Positions 1 to 30,965 of a stretch of 32,000 bases of DNA are shown here, piece after piece. The position numbers and the translations under genes were made by a program. Below the pieces are notes generated by a model that did no database searches, was not told the DNA's origin, and saw only the letters and a list, made by a program, of their open reading frames with translations. Every line of letters begins with the position of its first letter. The stretch's first letter is position 1. Where the stretch lies: contig NC_010628.1 of assembly GCF_000020025.1 (NCBI RefSeq), positions 7,530,001 to 7,562,000 on the forward strand, given 5' to 3'. The stretch is from Nostoc punctiforme PCC 73102. Its GTDB lineage: Bacteria; Cyanobacteriota; Cyanobacteriia; Cyanobacteriales; Nostocaceae.

Positions 1-985
1 AGAAAGCTTGGCTAATTTGTCCATCGCGTAACTGTACAACTTCACCTACGACTGGAGAATTATCTACTTTTTTCCCAGGTTTTATCGCAGGTTTTAGTGC
101 TTTTTGGCGAATATTTTCAAGTCTAACTTCTATTTCAGTATTTTTATATTTGAGAATGGCTTCACGTTCAAAATTAATGGTTTCGGTTGATAACTTACAT
201 AATGCTTGCAAGGATATCTTCCCTTGAGCGTGTAGAGCTTCTAACCAATTTGATGCTGACTCTAAAATTTGTTTTCCATTTTTTATTTGGATGGTTAATT
301 TATCTTCAATAGCATCGAAGATAACGAAAAGCGATATTTTTCTCCAAAATTTTTGAGTTGGATTTAATACCTTATAAGAAGTAACGATTTTTCCCTCTTC
401 TGGGACATGAAGTGCTAAATCTGAAGCCTGAATACTTTTTTGGATTTCCTCAAGTTTTAAAGAAGAGATATCAGCAATTGCACGATCAATAGTTAAAAAG
501 TCTGCCAAGTCTGGCAAATTGATCGCTGTCTCGCTTAGTGATTCAGCTTGAAAGGTTATTTTGTCACTTAAAGGGTCTGTAATAGCATTAAGCTGTACAG
601 GATATGGGGGCTGTGGTACAGACCCTTTTTCATAAAATGAGCGACCTTCAGAAGTAACTGTAATTGGTGATGTTTCTGATAGAGTTTGTAATGAGCGAAG
701 AGTTGCAGTAGTAGTTTTGATAAATACAGAATCCAGTCCAAGTACAGAGGCTAATTCATCCTCTGTTGGCGGAGGTTGAAATTCAATCGCAGCGCGGATA
801 ATAAATTCTTCGAGTACGTTAAACTGACGGGGCTCTTTGATATTTACTTCTATAGTAGTTTGACGCAAACTATAACGAAATTGACGCGCTGCTAAAACTG
901 ATAAACTAGGACTTTGCGCTTCTATTTCGTCTACAAAATTTTTGAGATTGTCATCAATAGGTTTAGCAGAAGAGGCGAGAAACAT
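1..985 (-). CDS. Partial CDS (N-terminal ~328 aa; continues past the left edge): hypothetical protein, putative partner of the SF1 helicase
   Basis: My translation of the reverse strand from the ATG at 985-983 is open to position 1 (MFLASSAKPIDDNLKNFVDEIEAQSPSLSVLAARQFRYSL...VVQLRDGQISQAF). It is absent from the ORF track because no stop lies in the window. Its first ~16 codons are duplicated at the helicase 3' end (3148-3194). Confidence 0.6.
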   Translation of the reverse strand, partial: MFLASSAKPIDDNLKNFVDEIEAQSPSLSVLAARQFRYSLRQTTIEVNIKEPRQFNVLEEFIIRAAIEFQPPPTEDELASVLGLDSVFIKTTTATLRSLQTLSETSPITVTSEGRSFYEKGSVPQPPYPVQLNAITDPLSDKITFQAESLSETAINLPDLADFLTIDRAIADISSLKLEEIQKSIQASDLALHVPEEGKIVTSYKVLNPTQKFWRKISLFVIFDAIEDKLTIQIKNGKQILESASNWLEALHAQGKISLQALCKLSTETINFEREAILKYKNTEIEVRLENIRQKALKPAIKPGKKVDNSPVVGEVVQLRDGQISQAF

Positions 986-1180
986 CAAGGGAATAAGATT
1001 GGATAATTGAATTTGTACAAATACTTGTAACCCATGAGGCAAAGTACCTTTATGCTTTCAATAAGCTTTGGCGGCGACTAGCCAACCAAGCAAATCCAGC
1101 ACTAGTGACAAATATTAGCACACCATATAATTTTCCCAGGAATGGTCATTGTGGGACTATTCAGCAGCGTAGGGGTAGCA

Positions 1181-1209
1181 GCGATCGCGATGGGAGCATC
1201 CACTTTTGG
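1181..1209. repeat. IS terminal inverted repeat (left)
   Basis: It matches the reverse complement of 2347-2376, with one extra base and one mismatch. Confidence 0.7.
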
Positions 1210-1237
1210 CAGAAACACTCAAATAGCAAGTAAACCA

Positions 1238-2289
1238 TTAAGATAAGCTTAAGCGTTCAGAGAGAATTTGGTTGACACTCTCAACATTCCACTGTGCACC
1301 AGAAATTTTAATCCTGGCTCCAATCTGTTTAATTGCCGACTCGACTGCACCAGAACCGATAGAACAGAGTTCTTCAGCCTGGTAATAGCTGTAGTTGACA
1401 ATACGAGAACGATGTTTGTTGAGATAAGTAATGAAATTTTTCACCTGTTTACCTCGGCAATGAATAAACAAAGCCTGAGTATTATCTATTTGACCTTGCC
1501 ACAAAAAACTTTCAGCAGCTTTAAGCCGTTTTAAAGAACCACCAATTTTATAGAGATTTTCTTTGAGGTGATACCAGTCTAAAATTTCCCAACGCTCAAA
1601 ATTCTCACTTTTACCAAATTCTCTGACAAGATTCCACACACCATCATGACCATCTCCTAAGCAGACTAACGGGTTAACCAGAGGCTGAATATTGACATAA
1701 TCAACTAATGATTGGTTGTCATCAAAAAACGCACCATAGTAAATCCCTTGTAGACGAACGGTTTTATAGTCTCGCCAGTGACAGCCTGCTTTCGGTTTAC
1801 CTCTAAGTCGGACTTTTCCTCCATCTACATTGACTTCTGACACGACTTGTAATGCTACGGGCAGTTGAAAATCTTGTTCGAGAACTAGTTTTTGTTGCGT
1901 CGTGTGACCAACTTTCACTCCTGTTAATGCCTCAATTTCGATTTCTGCTTTTTGGTATGAAACATTTGCTGATAGTCGCAAACAGCACTTTTGAAGTAAT
2001 GGACTTAAACGGCTTCTTGGCTTCAAACCCAGTTTCTGTAACTGTTTGGCTTTTAATTTTAATTCTCCTACCAGGCTTTTGACTTTCCTGGTTTTACCTA
2101 CTTTTGTTTTGGTTGTTTGTTCGATAAAAAAAGGGCTATTTCTGGACCGACATATTCCAATATTTGGCTACGAACTGTTTTTTCTATACCTTCGAGGTCT
2201 ATTAACTGACTCTTATCAGCTTCCGAGTACAGTAATGTTGCCAGTTCTTCTAAGCAGGCTTTGATACGTTCTTGTTTCTCTTGGCTCAT
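1238..2289 (-). pseudogene. DDE transposase (ISKra4-family-like) interrupted by a 1-nt frameshift in a homopolymer
   Basis: The N-terminal ORF (2098-2304; likely ATG at 2289, MSQEKQERIKACLEEL...) and the C-terminal ORF (1238-2026; DGGKVRL, GDGHDGVW, LDWYHLKENLYKIGGS and SGAVES motifs) are parts of one protein. The downstream frame stays open upstream as ...FFIEQTTKTKVGKTRKVKSLVGELKLKAKQLQKLGLKPRSR. The two frames meet at the A7 run at 2126-2132. Confidence 0.7.
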
Positions 2290-2346
2290 AGTCAGCGATC
2301 GCACAGCGTTATTTCCTTCTACATTTTCTCAGAAATGGTAAATCTT

Positions 2347-2376
2347 CCAAAACTGGATGCTCCCGATCGCGATCGC
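2347..2376. repeat. IS terminal inverted repeat (right)
   Basis: Its reverse complement matches 1181-1209. Confidence 0.7.
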
Positions 2377-2462
2377 CAGTGTCGCATTTTGAATTCCTAC
2401 TTCTATTGTAATTGCCGTAATGCGTTTTTCTTCTAATTGGGTTAAAGTAGCGATCGCAAAAC

Positions 2463-2641
2463 CTTAGAGGTTATTTATAAAGTAAAAATAAGATTATTGT
2501 ACGGTGTGCTAGTCCCATATTTCTAGATGATTTGTCACAAAAAATTTTATCAAAGTGGTAACGCACCGCCATGTAATACGGTGCGTAATAGCGAAGCCGT
2601 AACCCGCCTTACTAAGATTTACTTTATAAATAGTCTCTAAG
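2463..2641. mobile_element. MITE-like non-autonomous element (~180 bp)
   Basis: It has 24 bp terminal inverted repeats: CTTAGAGGTTATTTATAAAGTAAA (2463-2486) against TTTACTTTATAAATAGTCTCTAAG (2618-2641), with 2 mismatches. There is an internal hairpin (ACGCACCG...CGGTGCGT) and no coding capacity. Confidence 0.45.
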
Positions 2642-2647
2642 CAGGCT

Positions 2648-2884
2648 TTATGAAATAGGAGTGGTTATATCTTCCTCCAAAGATGCTGGCAATTCAGAAG
2701 AACTAGCGCCACTTTGTGGTGTTGAAAGCTCATCACTTACCATTCCATCCCATGAATAGTTGCAGATTTTAGTGTGAAGCAATTTACCAAACGTCAGGTT
2801 AATTGCTAGGGCAAAAGAATCGATAAAAATTAGATTTACAAAACGATCAATCATTAGACCCCCTTGAGCTAAATTAAGCATCAA
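2648..2884 (-). CDS. Hypothetical 78 aa ORF (possibly a gene fragment)
   Basis: This rests on the ORF track only. I recognise no motif, and the ORF sits in a rearranged stretch between the MITE and the helicase. Confidence 0.15.
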   Translation of the reverse strand: MMLNLAQGGLMIDRFVNLIFIDSFALAINLTFGKLLHTKICNYSWDGMVSDELSTPQSGASSSELPASLEEDITTPIS

Positions 2885-3122
2885 GTGATATTTGATTTCT
2901 TACTACACATGCCATAATCTCTTTTCCAGAAATGTCTGGTATTTTAATAATTTTCAGTTGAAGGGGAAAGGGATAAAGCGATTGTGGATAAGGGAAACAG
3001 GAAAGAAAATATTATTTATCGCTTTAATTTTGAGAAGAAGTAACGCCAAATGAAAAACTTCGTTTTATCAGCATAACTGCTAAAGATGATACATCTGAAG
3101 GGATAAGCTATACCTATACAGG

Positions 3123-3191
3123 CTAATATGCCCAGTAGATATCCTTCTTGAGATTGTCATTAATAGGTTTAACTGAAAAGGCGAGAGACAT
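3123..3191 (-). pseudogene. 22-codon relic of the partner-gene 5' end, overlapping the helicase stop
   Basis: It reads ATG TCT CTC GCC TTT TCA GTT AAA CCT ATT AAT GAC AAT CTC AAG AAG... = [22 protein letters not shown]. This parallels MFLASSAKPIDDNLKN at the start of the CDS ending at 985. At the DNA level, 3148-3194 and 942-988 are 42/47 identical by hand alignment. Confidence 0.45.
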
Positions 3192-6100
3192 CAACGAAAC
3201 CTTCATGTGTACTGACAATATTTGAAACTTCTGAATACATACTTCCGACTTTACCTGATTGATGGGTAAACAATTTATGACAACCCACAATTATCAGCAG
3301 TTCTTGGGCGCGAGAAAATGCAACATTTACCCGTTCTGGCTTTTTAGCAAAACCCACATCTCCTTTGCTATTATTGCGAACCATACTTACAATTACAACA
3401 GGTCGCTCCATACCTTGAAATCTGTCTACAGTACCAGTACGAATCTCTAATGAAGGGAAAAGTTCAGATTGTAGGCGTTCATCAATTTTTCTTAATTGAG
3501 CGCCATAAAACGTAATTACGGCAATTTCTTTTTTTGGTTCAGCATTAGCAACTTTAGAAGCCCAAGTCGTCTCAAACTGTTGACATAGAAGTTCAATCGC
3601 ATCAATTTCTGGAGTATTAAAGTAAGAAGTTCCGTTTCTTTGCTCTAAAAACTGATTTTCGATAGGCGTTTTTACCCAAATAAGATGCTGAGATTCTTGG
3701 ATAATTTCGCCTGCTAAATGATGTGCGCGTTTTGTGTCCGGCTCCAAAATGCCAGATTCTAGTTTACCGTCATAAAACTGATTGATTGCACCCATAATAA
3801 ATGGGTGCATTCGATATTGTGTAGTTAGCATTTGTTTGATGCTTTCATCAGCAGATTCAAACTGACTTTTAAATAGTGATTCTTCTAAAAATTGTAGTTC
3901 GTCTCGTGTATTGCCAATTGTCTGAGCAACTTCTTCTAAAGTGCTAGTGTCAAGCATGGGTGGTAATTGCCGATGATCGCCTACCATGACTAACTTTTTA
4001 CCTTTTAAAGCAGGGATTAGTAACTCTGGTGGAGTACACTTACTAACCTCATCAATAATGACAACATCAAAGGATTTGAATTCTTCCGAAAAACCTCTAC
4101 TTGCAGCTTGAACGCAGGTGATACCAACGACGTTAGCATTATCTAAATATATGCGCCTTAAATCGTCGCGATCGCGCTCATTTGGCTGTCTTAATTTTCC
4201 AATCCAATCTTGGACAAAATTCTGATATTTTTTGAGATAATTTTCTTCTTTTTCGAGTTCCTTCTGCCAAGATTCAAACTGAATATTGATACCGCGCAAT
4301 AACTCTATATTAAACAAGTCAGCAGGATAATTTTCTGGCTTAAACTTATCCGGGGTTCTTTGCCATTCTGTCAACCACCAGTTTCTTTCTTCTATTAATC
4401 TATCTGATGGCTGTGGTTGTAACTTTTCTTCTATTTCACGTAAGCTAATTTGTAATTTTTGAAGTTGCTGTAGAGCAGTTTCAGTTTCTTCTTGTAGTTT
4501 TGATAAATGCTCGTGTAGAGAATTTTTAATTATCTCTAATACCGCAAAAGGTTCTAAGGATGAAATTAAATTTTCAAGCTGACTAATGGAAGTTACCCAA
4601 GAATTCACTTGATTTGAGAATTCTTGTGGATGCTCCCAAATATTTGATTGTGTCGCAAGATATTTCTCCGTTAAAGTGCGTAATTGAGTAGGTATATTTT
4701 GTTGATTAAGTTCTTGCAAGATATTAATAACTCTGCCAAGTTGTAAATTAGCGTCTTGTTGCGCTTTTTCTACCTCAGCTTGAGTAATAGATATTTGCTG
4801 TTGGCTAATTTCATTTTTCTGAAGTTCATTTAATTGTCTTTGTAAATACTGAAGCTGTTGTTCAGTTTCGGTTTTGACTTTTAAAACGCATTGACGTGCA
4901 TTTACAAGAATAGTATCTAACAATTCTTGGGTAAGTTTGGTGAGAGTAGAATCGATATTATTCCATTCCCATGATGCGCCATAAGTCCGTTGCATTCTAA
5001 TTAAAAAAACTTGGGTATTTTCGACCAGTAATTTTCGCTGTTTGGGATTGAGTAGCTGATAATTGCTAAACTGTTGATAGGTTTCTTGCCATTGGGTGCG
5101 ATCGCCCTTTGATAGCACCATTGGAATCTGACTAAAATTTTCTTGCAAGAAATAGCTGAAATTATGCTGTTTTCCCCGTCTATCAGTAAAACCTCCGTCT
5201 ATTTCATAAGCGATCGCTTTTGTCAATAGCTCCCATTCTGGCAAATTAATTTTGTAAATTTTTGGTACTATTGCTAATTTTAATGTATTAGCAAACATCA
5301 ATAAACCTAGTGGTAAGTCCACTAAATTTTCTGTTAGTGGTAAACCTGATTGCTGACAATCTTTTAAAGTTTGATAAAGATGAGAAGGTGCTGTAGACTT
5401 CCATTCTTTTACTGCTGAGATAATATAATCAATTTCACGTTGCCGATTTTCCCAAATCTGGATTGTTTGCTGTAGTTTTTGCAGTTTAGCAAGATATTTC
5501 TGATAATCTGGTTGTACTTGATTTAATAATGCAAAATTCTGTTTGACAACCTCAACTGATGCTGCAACTTCTAAGATGGCTTGACTAGCCTCTTGAGCAG
5601 AAGTAAAAGCAGATTTAAATCCAGAAATTTCTGTTGCTACAGTTTCACGCAACCAAACCGCTAAACCAAAAGCGCCAAGTGCCGGACGCGCCAAGCCAAG
5701 TTCATCAGTATATTTGATGGTTTGACGAACATTTGCTAAAAATTCTTCTACTAAACTATTACCTTCTGTGTATGGTTTCAGAAGTGGCAAAAAATCTGTA
5801 ACTTCTGGAGATTCCCAATTTATAGGTGCAGTGTTTAGTATATTTTCTAGACCTGCAATTAGAGATTCAACATTGTTTTGTTTTTCTACGGTTTCATTGT
5901 AAGATTTTTCTTGATTTTTAAAGTTTGTCTCTACTTTTAACTTATTTTTATTAAATTTTGTTTGCTGCTGGCTAAATTCTTCCTCTGCTTGTAAGTAGGG
6001 TGTAAATCTTTGTGATGATGCCAGTAATTGACTGAAAATTTTGATATTTTCGAGACGTTGTGTAATATTATTTTCGCAGTCATAAGCTGTATTTTCTAGC

Positions 6101-7644
6101 CATCTGCCAATCACTTGGTCTTCTAAAAATGGCTGTCCTTCTTCCCCAACTTTTTCGGCTCGACCCTTGCGTACTGCCCGAATTACTGAGTTGTGAACTA
6201 ATCTACTCAGGGCGTTATCTACTGCTAAATTGGCTTGTGAAGCGATTAAGGTACGCCCACCTCGAAGGGCAATTTGATAGCAAATTTCAGCAATTACAGT
6301 AGTTTTCCCAGTACCTGGTGGCCCTTGGATGAGAACAAGATCCTTGGCGGCAAGTACCTTTTCTACTGCAGCTTTTTGTCCAGGATTAGCGGAAGATAAT
6401 AATAAATCTTGTGGTTGAAGTTCAACAGTTGTTTTGATTTGTCTAGCCTGAGAAGCATCGAATAAAAAGTTACCTAAATAAGGATTCTGGGTGTAACCAT
6501 TATTCAAATCATCTAACGCTTTCTTCTTACGCTGAATCTGCTGAATATCTCCAACTGCCTCGAAACATAAGAATCCGGTAGCTGGTAATTTATAGCGCTC
6601 TGTTGCCATGAATTCAGCTAAGTCGCGTTCTAGCCGGAGGCTGATAATACAACGGTTGGTATCAACTTCTTCAACAGTTCCTAATTGACGACCGCTAATC
6701 CAATTTTTCCCGACAGGAGCAGTTTCAAAAAGTTTTAAATCTTCGTTTTTTGTGCGTCTTGCTCGTTCCCAAAAATTATCTACTTCGAGGGAATTTTGAT
6801 AAAAACCGTCAAGGGTGGCTGAGTTTACATCAATTTCAAAACTAATCCGCCTTTTGAAGTTATAGTTATGGCTTACGTAACGCACACAAAATTGACGTGC
6901 TTTAGCAATTTTTTCCTCAATTTGCAAAAACGCTTTCCAAGCTTTCAGCTGATCTTCTGTAGGTACATTTTCGCCACAAACTGGCGCGGTGGCGATGCGC
7001 TTCAATGTCGCTGGCGGAATATCGAGATGATGCTGATGATTAGCCAGTAAACGCAAGCGACAAGGCATAGCGTAGCTGTCGGCGTGTCCGCGTGAGGGTT
7101 GTAGCAACTGAGCCGACAGTACTTTTATACCGTCGCGTCCATCTTTTTGTACAGCTGCTCTAAATCCTAATGTTTTTCTGAGCTTCTCAAGTCTTGCAGG
7201 CAATGGAAAATCATCGGAGTCTGTCGCTATTGTCAAATCCCAAATTTCCTCTCTTGCTTCTTTCCCTGCACCCTTGCGACGCACATAAAATAAAGAAGGC
7301 TTTTTGCCGACACATTCATACATTAACTCATTGGCGCGATCGCGCCGCTCCCTAAAATCGGAATATGATTTCAAGGCAGCCTCACCTTCAAGATGGCGGA
7401 TAAAACTATCAATTGCTGAAGCTATAAACGTATAGCCCCAATCTTCAGAGGTTGTTTTAGTTTTTGACGATTTTGCTGTTAGTTTACTTATCGCTAAACG
7501 AATACGTTCTGCATCGGATTCTGGTATTGCACTGGTATGGCTTTTGACTGCAATCTTGAGCTTTTCACAAATTGCTAATAGCTTCTTGCTATCTAAATTT
7601 AATTCTTTTGCTAGTTCGTAGATTCTGAGTTTACCGTTGTTCAT
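3169..7644 (-). CDS. IF2_N-domain-containing Upf1-like superfamily 1 helicase (AAA_11/AAA_12 type) with a very long coiled-coil insertion
   Basis: The 1506 aa ORF has a TTG start; the likely ATG start is M16 (7644), [49 protein letters not shown], which is an IF-2 N-terminal-type domain. SF1 motifs seen are [12 protein letters not shown] (I, ~6300-6330), [11 protein letters not shown] (Ia), VVIIDEVSK (II, ~4045-4075), GDHRQLPP (III), TTQYRMHP (IV), [16 protein letters not shown] (V) and VNVAFSRAQ (VI). Motifs I and II are ~750 aa apart, separated by Q/E/L/K-rich heptad-like sequence. Confidence 0.9.
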
Positions 7645-7674
7645 CCAGTTAACAATTGAGGGTTTAGATTTAAA

Positions 7675-7713
7675 CGCAGAGGGGCGCAAAGGTAAGCGCA
7701 GAGGGGCGCAAAG
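7675..7713. repeat. Two copies of a 17 bp direct repeat, CGCAGAGGGGCGCAAAG, at 22 bp period in the helicase 5' region
   Basis: The copies at 7675-7691 and 7697-7713 are identical. They lie 30-70 nt upstream of the probable helicase ATG (7644). A partial third copy (CTGCGTTT) sits near 7768. Confidence 0.8.
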
Positions 7714-7788
7714 TATTATTTTAGTGCGATTTGCTACGAATTAGATTTGGCAACACTCTACGTTCTTCTGCGTTTAAAAACTTTATGA

Positions 7789-14019: not shown

Positions 14020-14112
14020 CTATGCAGAGTAGAAATGGAGCTAACAATCTGGGTGAGTGGCTCTTAATCTTTCTAATTGCATCTTGACAGAATCAAACTC
14101 GTATGGTGTGTA

Positions 14113-15171
14113 ATGGAGCTTGATGTGCGTAATGGACATAAAGAGGTAATTCCCTCAAATCACCATCTAGATTTTTCTCAACAAGGCTATCAAGTTATCA
14201 GCGAACTAGGACGCAACCGAGAAGGGGGAAGAATTACTTACTTAGCTAATGTTCTCAATTTTAAGCAACAGGTAGTGATTAAAGAGTTTTGTTTTGCTCG
14301 GGCCGATGCTGATTTGTCAGGTGTGAAAGCATATCAGCGCGAAATTGAAATTTTGCAGCAACTCAATCATTCTCGCATCCCTCGCTATATAGATTCTTTT
14401 GAAATACCAGGGGCTTTTTATCTGGTACAGGAACATAAAAATGCCCCATCTTTAGGCTTAAAAAACAGCTTTCATCCAGAAGAAATTAAGCAAATTGCTC
14501 TGTCAATTTTAGAGCTTTTAGTTTATCTACAAAAGCAAGTTCCGCCAATTATTCATCGGGATATCAAACCAGAAAATATTTTGGTTGATGAGCAACTAAA
14601 TGCTTATTTAGTTGATTTTGGATTAGCTAGGATACAGGGTGCAAAAATAGCTCTTAGCAGCTTTGTAGCAGGAACCCCAGGTTTTATGCCACCAGAAGAA
14701 CAGTTTGGTCATTCCTTGACTGAGGCATCAGATTTATATAGTTTGGGAGCAACACTAATTTGCTTACTCACTAATACCCGTTCTGTTGATATTGGAAAAT
14801 TAATTGATGATAACTACCGCTTTAATTTCCAGCAATTAGTTCCTCAAATCAGTCCGCGTTTTCGGTGGTGGTTAATGACAATGGTGGAACGTAACCGAAA
14901 CCGTCGCTATGCTAATGCGGCTATTGCTTTAAAAGCACTTGAGCCAATTGAGGTTGTTGGTACTGGCACTGGAATAGATAATTTCATCAGTACAATCAAA
15001 CCTATAAAACGAGCTACAGTGCTGGGACTAGCTACTGTTATTACACTAGCTGCTATGGGGGCAACTTTGATGAGTTGTCAGCCTGGTAGTGCGGTTAGGC
15101 AATTGCTGGAAGCAAGAGAATGTCAAAGCTTGGATTTCAAAGCAAGTTGTCAACAAAAAACCGGGAATTAA
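14113..15171 (+). CDS. Hanks-type Ser/Thr protein kinase with a C-terminal TM segment; the tail appears truncated
   Basis: It has VVIKEF (the VAIK lysine), HRDIKPENILV, DFGLAR and GTPGFMPPE, then a TM helix (ATVLGLATVITLAAMGATLM). The protein ends ...QLLEARECQSLDFKASCQQKTGN*. I prefer the ATG at 14113 to the TTG at 14077. Confidence 0.85.
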   Translation: MELDVRNGHKEVIPSNHHLDFSQQGYQVISELGRNREGGRITYLANVLNFKQQVVIKEFCFARADADLSGVKAYQREIEILQQLNHSRIPRYIDSFEIPGAFYLVQEHKNAPSLGLKNSFHPEEIKQIALSILELLVYLQKQVPPIIHRDIKPENILVDEQLNAYLVDFGLARIQGAKIALSSFVAGTPGFMPPEEQFGHSLTEASDLYSLGATLICLLTNTRSVDIGKLIDDNYRFNFQQLVPQISPRFRWWLMTMVERNRNRRYANAAIALKALEPIEVVGTGTGIDNFISTIKPIKRATVLGLATVITLAAMGATLMSCQPGSAVRQLLEARECQSLDFKASCQQKTGN

Positions 15172-15601: not shown

Positions 15602-16228
15602 ATGGTTCAATTTATTCAAGGAAGAGATATAACCTTAGCCCAACTCATCGATCAATTTGGGCTACAACGTGCAGACAACGAACAGTTTTTTTCAGAGTGG
15701 CAGCAAGATTTACCTGAGTTGAGTGATTTAGAAAAGCAATCTCTCAACGAAGTCAAGGCAGAATACTTGCATTTATCACGCTACCAAATTTTAGAACCTG
15801 TAGTCAAAATGGTGGTGCTATCTCCACTATTGCGTCTAGCAGGTTTTTATCAACCGCCTTTTTATATTGCGTCAGAAGAAGAGGTCAGGATTTCTTCTGA
15901 AGATGAAGGCACAATTATTAGAGGATGTATTGATATCTTGGTTTTTCATCCCCCATTTTGGGTTCTCGTTATTGAAGCCAAACGAGCAGAATATTCTTTA
16001 GAGGTAGCAATTTCTCAAGCATTAGCTTATATGTTGGCTAATCTTGGTAATGATAAACCTACGTTTGGTTTTGTAACCAATGGTCGAGAATTTCAATTTA
16101 TTAAGTTGACGAAAGAGGATACACCAAGATATGCATTATCTTACACACTGTCGCTCAATCGTGGAGATGACCTAGATACTGTGGTAAAAGTGTTAAAACG
16201 TCTAGCTTCTTTAGTCCATAATTCGTAG
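15602..16228 (+). CDS. PD-(D/E)xK-fold nuclease-like protein (HsdR-N-terminal-like family common in cyanobacteria)
   Basis: The 208 aa protein has GCIDILVFHPPFWVLVIEAKRAEYSL, a D...(E)xK core, followed by GFVTNGREFQFIKL. Confidence 0.7.
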   Translation: MVQFIQGRDITLAQLIDQFGLQRADNEQFFSEWQQDLPELSDLEKQSLNEVKAEYLHLSRYQILEPVVKMVVLSPLLRLAGFYQPPFYIASEEEVRISSEDEGTIIRGCIDILVFHPPFWVLVIEAKRAEYSLEVAISQALAYMLANLGNDKPTFGFVTNGREFQFIKLTKEDTPRYALSYTLSLNRGDDLDTVVKVLKRLASLVHNS

Positions 16229-19984: not shown

Positions 19985-20317
19985 ATGAAACTTCCTAACC
20001 CTGAATGCGCGATCGTTGAAATAGATAAAATCGCGGGTTACTGTCTCAACCCAGAACATCCAGAGGGAAAACACAAAGCTCGTGTATTTAAATCTGCACT
20101 AGACTTAGATTTAGATGATGCAGAAGAATTGCAAGCGATCCTTTTACAAGCAGTAGTAAATTATGATGCTATCCCTGGAAAAAGAAATCCATACGGTCAA
20201 AAATATATCATTGATTTTCCCCTAAATCGTTCAGATAAACAAGCAATTATTCAAAGCGTTTGGATAGTGCTTAATAATGAAGGCTTTCCACGCCTAGTCA
20301 CCTGTTATGTAATCTAA
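19985..20317 (+). CDS. DUF6883-like small protein (first gene of a two-gene cassette)
   Basis: The 110 aa protein has the KIAGYCLNPEHPEGKHKARVFKSALDLD motif that I associate with DUF6883. It lies 17 nt upstream of the next ORF. Confidence 0.65.
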   Translation: MKLPNPECAIVEIDKIAGYCLNPEHPEGKHKARVFKSALDLDLDDAEELQAILLQAVVNYDAIPGKRNPYGQKYIIDFPLNRSDKQAIIQSVWIVLNNEGFPRLVTCYVI

Positions 20318-30298: not shown

Positions 30299-30731
30299 GG
30301 AATTGTCCTTGAGGTTGCCGTACAGGTAGCTGGTTTTTATCTCGTTTAGAGAGGTTTTTGCCAGCTTTTGTAATATGTCTACCTGATCCGAGCAGGAATT
30401 AGACAGACAATCTAACATATTATTTTATCCACAGGTGCTAAGTCAAGCTTCCATTTGCCAAAATTCGTGATGGCGATCGCTTACCCAAAAATCAGAATTG
30501 ATACTTTTTATTGAAATACAGCTTCTATCTTAAGAGTGATTTTTACAAACTACTAGAAATATTTTAGATTCAAACTTATAGTTTCTTATCAAAATCTCCA
30601 CATTTCTCTTACTTATTTTAAAATTAAAATTACACAGCTTAATCTAATAGTTCTTTACAGAATTTAGTGAATCGAAAAAAATCAAATTACTACATTCAAA
30701 CCTGATATTGAAAACAGGAGATGGATTTGTC

Positions 30732-30965
30732 ATGACACAGCAAAATGCTACCCGACTTTTTCAAGCCGTAAAAAAAGATCAAGCATTGCAGCAAAAGCTT
30801 AAAGCAACAGCTGATCCAGAAGCTTTCATCAAGATTGCTAAAGAGCGTGGTTATGACTTCACAACTGATGAACTGGAAAATGAAATCAACAAGTTATCAG
30901 AAGAAGATTTAGCCGCCATTGTCAATCCAGGATGGGGAACTAGACGGCACATTCTTCCTAGATAA
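30732..30965 (+). CDS. Nif11-like leader peptide family protein (possible RiPP precursor)
   Basis: MTQQNATRLFQAVKKDQALQQKLKATADPEAFIKIAKERGYDFTTDELENEINKLSEEDLAAIV matches the Nif11-type leader. It is followed by the short tail NPGWGTRRHILPR. AGGAG lies 10 nt upstream of the ATG at 30732. Confidence 0.7.
   Translation: MTQQNATRLFQAVKKDQALQQKLKATADPEAFIKIAKERGYDFTTDELENEINKLSEEDLAAIVNPGWGTRRHILPR

Follow-up and report, generated by a model that had tools for sequence, protein, structure and literature searches.

The stretch of DNA analysed here (the window) comprises 32,000 nucleotides (nt) of Nostoc punctiforme PCC 73102 (contig NC_010628.1, positions 7,530,001 to 7,562,000) and carries a gene for a giant Upf1-type helicase of superfamily 1 (SF1) together with the first part of a gene for its putative nuclease partner. 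The helicase open reading frame (ORF) extends from 3169 to 7689 on the minus strand, and with the ATG at 7644 as start codon it codes for 1491 amino acids (aa). The product is an exact match to the N. punctiforme protein ACC84380.1 / WP_012412321.1, which is labelled in the database as 'translation initiation factor IF-2 N-terminal domain-containing protein'. The SF1 motifs are intact, as a first-pass annotation of this DNA had read from the letters. For Walker A (GPPGTGKT) the position is aa 441 (nt 6301-6324), for the DE box it is aa 1198 (nt 4048-4053); motifs III, V and VI read GDHRQ, TVDRFQG and VAFSRA. The distance between Walker A and the DE box had been estimated at about 750 aa and was measured as 757 aa. 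In Pfam the AAA_11 domain is split into two pieces (about aa 419-477 and aa 1040-1231) and AAA_12 is unbroken (aa 1253-1456).

Mokosh type I consists of a COG1112/Upf1-like helicase gene with a Ser/Thr kinase domain and a gene for a phospholipase D (PLD) family nuclease (10.1101/2022.05.11.491447). It was found that the MkoA profile PDLC03920 of PADLOC matches the helicase with an E value of 4.8e-114 (380.8 bits), and another MkoA match gave 363 bits; the match to the MkoC profile of PADLOC was weaker (118 bits). The score against TIGR00376, the NCBIfam model of the IGHMBP2 family, was 231 bits, which is below the cut-off of 349, and the helicase is thus not an IGHMBP2-family orthologue. Other helicase-based defence families of NCBIfam scored far under their cut-offs (PLuB_AAA 153 bits against 999, ProA 36 against 1500, Hhe 26 against 2000), and DpdJ, another of the helicase-based defence families tested, gave no whole-protein match at the curated cut-off. 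Pfam showed no PLD domain in the helicase polypeptide, which ends with a stop codon at 3169.

The partner ORF continues beyond the window edge. Its 328 codons inside the window have no Pfam or PADLOC match of their own, and they are 83-85% identical to the N-terminal half of proteins of 586-606 aa from Nostoc sp. C052 and Desmonostoc muscorum. These orthologues match the MkoB profile of PADLOC with E values of 1e-29 to 1e-30 (100-105 bits, profile positions 17-455 of 610) and score 25 bits against Pfam PLDc_2, slightly below the 27-bit cut-off. The HxK(x4)D motif of PLD nucleases is intact in them (HVKEVIVD...G(S/A)HNWL). When the partners of other relatives are included, the scores range from 93 to 120 bits against MkoB and from 38 to 48 bits against MkoC. 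The partner is predicted through its orthologues to be a homologue of MkoB, a PLD-family nuclease with a single HKD motif. Because the helicase matches MkoA, the orthologues of the partner match MkoB and the two genes overlap in Cylindrospermum and Trichormus, the gene is probably the helicase subunit, MkoA-like, of a two-gene system resembling Mokosh type I. The earlier guess of a Mokosh-like module is borne out to this extent, and its proposal of an undescribed module gives way to a variant of a described system. The features of the locus and the N-terminal heads found in relatives of the helicase are collected in Table 1.

Table 1. Features of the helicase-partner locus (positions in the window) and heads of related helicases (representatives named in the last column).
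Feature	Position	Strand	Basis or remark
MkoA-like giant Upf1-type SF1 helicase, probable coding sequence of the helicase subunit	3169..7644	(-)	1491 aa; ACC84380.1 / WP_012412321.1
IF2_N domain, aa 4-50, then low-confidence linker, aa 57-63	7495..7635	(-)	Pfam PF04760; Thermus IF2; dip in model confidence
Alpha/beta domain, aa 64-228, without assigned fold	6961..7455	(-)	AlphaFold2 confidence about 88; conserved among closer MkoA-like relatives
Putative Upf1-type beta-barrel (1B) and stalk helices before Walker A, aa 229-415	6400..6960	(-)	Foldseek alignment length
RecA1, N-terminal part, with Walker A and motif Ia	6055..6399	(-)	Motifs; Pfam AAA_30, AAA_19 and first AAA_11 stretch; invariant alignment columns
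All-helical insert of about 650 aa, antiparallel coiled-coil-like arm with small globular helical part at aa ~770-890	4105..6054	(-)	AlphaFold2
RecA1, C-terminal part (DE box), RecA2 (motifs III-VI) and stop codon	3169..4104	(-)	Second AAA_11 stretch, AAA_12, motifs, Foldseek
55-nt imperfect direct repeat, copy 1: helicase 3' end, stop codon and first ~27 nt of partner 5' coding sequence	3145..3199		
Spacer between helicase and partner	994..3144		Mosaic common to other Nostoc, plus ISKra4-family element; blastn among spacers
ISKra4-family insertion sequence	1192..2364	(-)	22-nt inverted repeats; transposase ORFs 2098-2304 and 1238-2026; 9-bp flanking duplication ATCGCGATC
55-nt repeat, copy 2: remnant of a second, lost helicase paralogue (its 3' end), which overlaps the start of the partner	939..993		
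MkoB-like partner gene, N-terminal 328 codons	1..985	(-)	ATG at 985; continues beyond window edge
Head: none			P0123, P0128, P0130
Head: X220 (unannotated, ~220 aa)			P0122 (Argonema)
Head: IF2_N and X220			P0139
Head: IF2_N on a more distant helicase			P0218
Head: Pkinase (and X220)			P0147 (Ktedonobacteria); Pkinase 199 bits
Head: S1 RNA-binding domains			P0171, P0185

The N-terminus of the helicase had been described as strikingly close to that of cyanobacterial IF-2, and this resemblance was recovered by a Pfam profile, by sequence and by fold. IF2_N (PF04760) matches aa 4-50 with an E value of 1.5e-9 (38 bits, gathering score 25.3), and when aa 1-70 were compared by phmmer with all chains of the Protein Data Bank (PDB) the sole match was the N-domain of Thermus thermophilus IF2 (aa 2-52, E 2e-8). 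Pfam shows no GTP_EFTU or other IF-2 domain in the helicase besides IF2_N. Two AlphaFold2 models were built, of aa 1-535 and aa 400-1491, with an alignment of 43 sequences reaching down to about 33% identity. The first model (mean predicted local distance difference test score, pLDDT, 75.9) consists of a small alpha/beta IF2_N unit, a linker, a confident alpha/beta domain (aa 64-228) and a beta-rich unit with flanking helices (aa 229-381). Foldseek with this model again returned IF2 entries for the N-terminus. The domain at aa 64-228 has no significant fold match of its own in the PDB by Foldseek and was detected in kinase-, X220- and S1-type relatives. The same model matched IGHMBP2 (4b3g, E 1e-6), Upf1 (2gk6) and SETX/Sen1 over 300-315 aligned columns (315 for 4b3g). 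As the model contains only about 120 residues of RecA1, alignments of this length must include the region before Walker A, and we infer that aa ~229-415 form an Upf1-type 1B barrel and stalk; the region is present in 94 of 102 relatives. The stretch aa 70-470, earlier said to be without a recognisable motif, thus remains unassigned in its first part (aa 64-228) and probably finds its place in the helicase fold in its second.

The second model (pLDDT 78.7) gave the helicase core, which matched IGHMBP2 (E 7e-14), SETX, Dna2 (E 6e-12), Upf1, Sen1, ZNFX1 and Aquarius in the PDB; for IGHMBP2, SETX, Dna2 and Upf1 the E values ran from 7e-14 to 1e-11. Across both models Foldseek found the arrangement of Upf1-like SF1B helicases, that is, a RecA1/RecA2 core with 1B barrel, stalk and 1C insertion. 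Between motifs Ia and II the chain is nearly all alpha-helical, with single helices of 47-87 residues (pLDDT 80-88), which agrees with the coiled coil that had been proposed here; this insert is about 650-660 aa long and not about 700. Foldseek gave weak matches of the insert to the arms of cohesin, condensin, MukB and Smc5/6 and to the dynein stalk (E 4e-5 to 5e-4), and SMC_N of Pfam scored 14 bits against the helicase with a cut-off of 40. From the order of the motifs, read with established knowledge of Upf1-like structures, the insert would sit at the position of subdomain 1C, the 'prong'.

The GC content of the helicase gene is 0.379 against 0.404 for the window and is lowest in the insert (0.347), where the lowest-GC region coincides with the Q/E/K/N/L-rich sequence. 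The gene is therefore AT-rich as had been noted, only modestly and mainly through the insert. GC at third codon positions is 0.278 in the helicase and 0.229 in the partner, with neighbours at 0.285-0.42. The ratio of nonsynonymous to synonymous substitution rates (Ka/Ks) was calculated across Nostoc-clade genomes that all carry the two genes apart, and it was 0.10-0.20 for the helicase and about 0.2 for the partner. The RecA core gave 0.006-0.08, except in the saturated comparison with Cylindrospermum (RecA2 0.16); IF2_N gave 0.08-0.32, and the insert, the fastest-evolving part, 0.15-0.26. These ratios show purifying selection on all segments of the helicase and the maintenance of both genes.

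Relatives were collected by a full-library search with aa 1-1190, which returned 6517 sequences at E<=1e-3 and 260 at E<=1e-30; with a kinase-type query unrelated kinases dominated after the first 18 matches. In 102 representatives of nearly full length, 179 to 1071 aa separate the Walker A block from the C-terminal half of the helicase. As the median is 522 aa, the sequences indicate that the giant insert is a trait of the whole family and not a peculiarity of this gene, as it had first seemed. The N-terminal heads have been exchanged among kinase, IF2_N, S1, X220 or none, and a further 66 of the surveyed relatives carry other or unknown heads. The X220 segment has the motif G.YKGPF...DEPA...GVR.ENL.I.R and no Pfam match, and it stands alone or behind IF2_N or a kinase in MkoA-like helicases (aa 1-220 in P0122, P0125, P0126, P0138 and P0148; aa 85-300 in P0139; aa 285-520 in P0147). 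Among the Nostocales, IF2_N is carried by the helicases of Nostoc, Desmonostoc, Cylindrospermum, Heteroscytonema, Kalymmatonema, Mojavia and Goleter, along with some of Scytonema and Tolypothrix. Those of Trichormus, Stigonema, Tolypothrix VBCCA and Scytonema hofmannii, among others, lack it. The 1506-aa relative of Scytonema hofmannii PCC 7110 (L092), one of those without IF2_N, has no MkoB-like gene within 10 kb and appears to be an orphan helicase.

In Cyanobacteria, Chloroflexota, Bacteroidota and Actinomycetota a local profile of the partner located it directly downstream of the helicase. The two genes adjoin or overlap each other in Trichormus, Microcoleus and Thermoflexales as well as in Bacteroidota and Actinomycetota. 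The pairing proposed earlier is conserved across phyla. The distribution of relatives among the phyla is patchy. The S1 type likewise has an overlapping PLD partner. In Bacillaceae/Planococcaceae (L018-L022, L031, L035-L037, L042) the downstream gene is about 250 aa long, aligns with the N-terminal, non-PLD part of MkoB-like proteins and is without the HKD motif; this short form may be a differently built subtype. The relative with IF2_N and X220 (L093) overlaps with a MkoB-like gene (120 bits, HAKEVVVD) and has as neighbours a DrmD-like SNF2 helicase, a type IIG restriction-modification enzyme (884 bits), a HEC-09 NYN protein and a DruE-like helicase. In Ktedonosporobacter, 5 kb separate the kinase type from brxL and pglZ. 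Thus, the association with defence islands that had been predicted holds for distant relatives of the IF2_N and kinase types, whereas the Nostocales copy lies at one conserved site amid housekeeping genes. On the question of defence or residence the evidence points in both directions.

The history of this site could be followed within the Nostocales. In Cylindrospermum sp. NIES-4074 the order is Ser/Thr kinase, abhydrolase, SLH, MscS, HDAC, IF2_N-helicase, 611-aa partner, GCS2, SpoU and LysM/M23. The helicase and the partner overlap there by 26 nt, and the flanks are those of N. punctiforme on one side and of Nostoc C052 on the other. In Trichormus an adjacent, overlapping pair stands behind MscS-HDAC. 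From the overlap in Cylindrospermum with the same flanks and the adjacency in Trichormus it follows that the ancestral state in the Nostocales is a translationally coupled pair at the same site, which agrees with the original coupling that had been suspected. The HDAC-family gene was considered as a component of the system and set aside, as it is adjacent in Nostocales only and absent from Rhizonema, Microcoleus, Thermoflexales and others; its position is synteny.

N. punctiforme has a 55-nt direct repeat here, whose two copies are 85% identical and 2206 nt apart. The repeat comprises the end of the helicase frame with its stop codon, plus an ATG in the +1 frame, and the ATG of the distal copy (nt 985) starts the partner ORF. 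The two genes are also apart elsewhere in the Nostoc clade: by 4.1 kb in Nostoc C052, where the spacer includes a PPC/HemolysinCabind gene, by 6.8 kb in Desmonostoc, and by 6-9 kb in Nostoc NMS9 and ATCC 43529. Desmonostoc muscorum has in addition a second helicase paralogue (L009 16455-21257), which is pseudogenised into at least 3 ORFs (aa 61-1484, about 57% identity, without IF2_N). It lies directly upstream of the MkoB-like gene with its 3' end overlapping the partner start, and the intact IF2_N helicase is found 6.8 kb upstream of the partner. Because the 3' end of this paralogue overlaps the partner start at the corresponding place, the distal 55-nt copy is, as judged from sequence, the last vestige of a second helicase copy. 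The pair in Nostoc/Desmonostoc was separated by a rearrangement that left this vestige. A target-site duplication by one large insertion was ruled out as the origin of the repeat, as the copies are just 85% identical, the pseudogenised Desmonostoc helicase lies at the position of copy 2 and the insertion sequence (IS) in the spacer has a 9-bp duplication of its own.

That IS is the mobile element whose neighbourhood had been noticed earlier, and its transposase scores 232.7 bits against the NCBIfam model transpos_ISKra4 (cut-off 205). The transposase frame is split into ORFs of 68 and 262 aa, and the 9-bp duplication ATCGCGATC around the element contains a HIP1 octamer. Public short-read contigs of the N. 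punctiforme strain all terminate at this element. Elsewhere in the spacer a segment of about 470 nt (2466-2940) with a 78-aa ORF (2648-2884, minus strand) shares 91% identity with Nostoc C052 and 87% with Nostoc NMS9, a conservation similar to that of the surrounding coding DNA. A 24-nt inverted repeat (2463-2486 / 2618-2641) adjoins it. The segment has no Pfam, PADLOC or Rfam match; a small gene, an RNA and a miniature inverted-repeat transposable element are all possible identities. An Rfam scan of the whole window gave no matches. In a promoter and terminator scan the spacer showed fewer promoter-like sites than shuffled sequences and none that was convincing upstream of the partner.

On the other side of the helicase, upstream of its start, a 21-nt repeat (TAAACGCAGAGGGGCGCAAAG) occurs in two tandem copies at 7671-7713, with an inverted partner 64 nt away (7756-7778). 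One copy in the opposite orientation was found just downstream of the helicase in Nostoc C052 (L007 14570-14589), and shuffled sequences gave no chance matches. The opposite orientation speaks against a tandem-duplication junction and makes a small dispersed repeat more likely. Further away lies a Ser/Thr kinase gene (14077-15171, plus strand), which scores 130 bits against PD-T4-6 and 83 bits against the MkoA profile in its kinase part, and which keeps its position relative to the helicase across the Nostocales, probably by coincidental synteny. It was considered as a detached MkoA kinase and rejected, as PD-T4-6 is the better match and six unrelated genes on both strands lie in between. A 208-aa HSDR_N / PD-(D/E)xK-like protein (15602-16228, plus strand) adjoins this kinase. 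A DUF6883 protein (19985-20317, plus strand) directly follows uvrA, and a Nif11-domain peptide (30708-30965, plus strand), possibly the leader of a precursor of a ribosomally synthesised and post-translationally modified peptide, is encoded near the right end of the window.

Mokosh requires the ATP site of the helicase and the PLD protein's active site, as shown in the systems tested in E. coli, and its authors favour RNA or RNA/DNA hybrids as the target (10.1101/2022.05.11.491447). Nuclease-NTPase defence systems form complexes (10.1101/2025.07.10.664194). Following the model proposed for Mokosh, and in parallel with these complexes, the helicase of N. punctiforme would scan nucleic acid, likely RNA in view of its Upf1/IGHMBP2/SETX-like core and the RNA-associated heads of its family, and engagement of a foreign or aberrant substrate would license the PLD partner to cleave. 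The N-terminal head could be an exchangeable targeting or regulatory module, and the kinase of canonical MkoA would here have been replaced by IF2_N on a flexible linker. In E. coli the N1 domain of IF2 (aa 1-50) and the strands that follow bind the KH2/AR1 domains of NusA and so place IF2 at the transcribing RNA polymerase (PMC12297416). By analogy the IF2_N head may bind the helicase to the transcription-translation machinery, the place at which transcripts of a phage appear first; a tether is one of the roles suggested earlier, beside those of sensor and decoy. A candidate element for docking or dimerisation is the modelled coiled-coil arm and its globular tip. Because of the precedent of IF2 N1 and NusA together with the S1-type relatives, patrolling of nascent mRNA at the transcription-translation interface is the most economical, though unproven, hypothesis.

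It should be said here that several facts weigh against a Mokosh type I-like system working in this manner. MkoA of type I originally includes a kinase, and no Pkinase match of Pfam was found anywhere in the 1491 aa of the helicase. The genes are not adjacent as in an operon in N. punctiforme, with a 2.2-kb spacer and an ISKra4 element between them, and the partner ORF leaves the window at codon 328, upstream of the PLD part, which falls outside. Mokosh type II protected only against single-stranded DNA (ssDNA) phage (10.1101/2025.07.10.664194). The link between the IF2 N-terminus and NusA is known in E. coli only, and its authors note that conservation is lacking in the N-terminus of IF2 as well as in the C-terminus of NusA (PMC12297416). 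Lastly, the Nostocales locus is syntenic, flanked by the HDAC-family, MscS, GCS2 and SpoU housekeeping genes, and its inheritance appears to be vertical, an uncommon trait in defence systems.

This last point leads to the alternative that survives best, namely that the Nostocales pair has ceased to be an immune system, or never was one, and in a domesticated housekeeping role serves RNA surveillance or decay on the cell's own transcripts, reaching initiating ribosomes or NusA-bound RNA polymerase through IF2_N and cutting with a Zucchini-like nuclease. The same chromosomal site and flanks recur from Cylindrospermum to Nostoc, and an orthologue of the same length is found in >100 Nostoc clusters, with an identity that declines roughly with taxonomic distance from 95% to 54%. 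The rest of the window is likewise made of housekeeping genes, among them uvrA, rplU/rpmA and redox genes, and every helicase segment is under purifying selection. Against these stand the profile matches, which are to defence families, and the distant relatives, including one of the IF2_N type, in bona fide defence islands. Moreover, the N-terminus varies even inside the Nostocales, a paralogue has been pseudogenised, the junction between helicase and partner repeatedly takes insertions and the phyla are patchily occupied, so that we regard domestication as unlikely. A broader proposal is less probable again: that IF2_N and S1 heads deliver Mokosh-family helicases to nascent mRNA as it meets the initiating ribosome, with the Nostocales version as a resident, possibly domesticated RNA surveillance of the Upf1-plus-Zucchini kind. 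If this were true, the pair would be a bacterial counterpart or forerunner of quality control of the nonsense-mediated decay or piRNA type and not a disposable defence cassette.

The target could also be DNA. PLD nucleases include some that cut DNA, such as Nuc and BfiI. A DNA-directed, Dna2-like helicase-nuclease would act on ssDNA or on intermediates of replication and recombination, from phages, plasmids or transposons, with IF2_N as a generic small head for binding nucleic acid or protein. Dna2 is among the best fold matches of the core, the protection by Mokosh type II is directed at an ssDNA phage, and Foldseek also finds a resemblance between the IF2_N model and 8csh, a small domain that binds DNA (TM 0.77 over 51 residues, E 0.83). 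However, the closest matches in sequence and fold are RNA helicases, first IGHMBP2 (with a TIGR00376 score below the cut-off), followed by Upf1 and SETX; S1 RNA-binding domains occur in sister architectures, and RNA or RNA/DNA hybrids are what the Mokosh authors favour. A DNA-directed role is accordingly a doubtful one. Most improbable of all is an uncoupled or decaying system, in which the partner fell silent or became independent after the rearrangement and the IS and the helicase is an orphan heading for loss like the second Desmonostoc paralogue: the IS-bearing 2.2-kb spacer, spacers of up to 4-9 kb in the Nostoc clade, the pseudogenised paralogue and the lack of a convincing promoter signal upstream of the partner in an uninformative scan would suit it, but both ORFs are intact within the window, Ka/Ks is about 0.1-0.2 for the helicase and about 0.2 for the partner in genomes that all have the split, and the duplicated 55 nt keep the helicase C-terminus and the partner start.

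For the Mokosh type I-like reading, the series of MkoA-like heads (kinase, IF2_N, S1) on one core offers a testable handle on the sensing step of Mokosh, of which type I has not yet been purified (10.1101/2025.07.10.664194). The lead is that the head may set the place in which the helicase patrols; two of these heads suggest mRNA and the machinery of transcription and translation. N. punctiforme is a genetically tractable model cyanobacterium, and Cylindrospermum NIES-4074 offers an intact pair with overlapping genes. That the gene has stayed at one locus across the Nostocales could in addition present a case of an immune module becoming a stable resident gene.

Mokosh itself is already known, and the domain combination, which had been taken for undescribed, is already named by NCBI ('IF-2 N-terminal domain-containing protein') in >100 Nostocales clusters; in the literature no paper was found on the accessions of this protein, on IF2_N outside IF2 or on Mokosh in Nostoc. 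With bacterial IF-2 the helicase shares the sequence and fold of aa 4-54 and the manner in which this domain is joined to the remainder, as the N-domain of IF2 also hangs on a flexible linker according to work cited in PMC12297416; unlike IF-2 it has no GTPase or any other IF2 domain. As in ATPases of the SMC/Rad50 type, a coiled-coil-like arm with weak matches to their arms splits the ATPase, which here is an SF1 helicase and not of the ABC type. Upf1, IGHMBP2, Senataxin/Sen1, ZNFX1, Aquarius and Dna2 have in common with it the RecA1/RecA2 fold, the barrel and stalk before Walker A (best Foldseek E 7e-14 to 1e-9) and, by the order of the motifs, an accessory insertion at the 1C or 'prong' position. 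The identity to these eukaryotic helicases is 22-27%, the insert is about 650 aa here against tens of residues there, the N. punctiforme protein has no CH, R3H or other eukaryotic accessory domains, and its partner is a PLD protein. A parallel in working logic, drawn before (10.1101/2022.12.12.520048), is that of MOV10L1 with Zucchini/PLD6 in piRNA precursor processing, where an Upf1-like RNA helicase works with a single-HKD PLD nuclease; the homology is at the level of domains only, and nothing in the N. punctiforme pair points to the production of small RNAs, to anchoring in a membrane or to Argonaute partners. Mokosh type II (MkoC, a single protein like YjhR of E. coli) uses the same helicase and PLD families, whereas N. 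punctiforme has two polypeptides without fusion, and its helicase is far larger and has additional domains at the N-terminus as well as the long helical insert. To Mokosh type I the likeness is greatest: an Upf1-like COG1112 helicase gene is followed by a separate PLD-family nuclease gene, both match the type I profiles (the nuclease through its orthologues), the ATP-binding motifs are intact in the helicase and HKD is intact in the partner orthologues. The differences are an IF2_N head in place of the Ser/Thr kinase, about 420 extra residues in RecA1 as estimated from the coordinates of the 1112-position MkoA profile, and genes that are not adjacent and lie at a conserved chromosomal site rather than in a mobile island. 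The N. punctiforme helicase thus differs from published Mokosh type I in being kinase-less, IF2_N-headed, long-armed and chromosomally resident.

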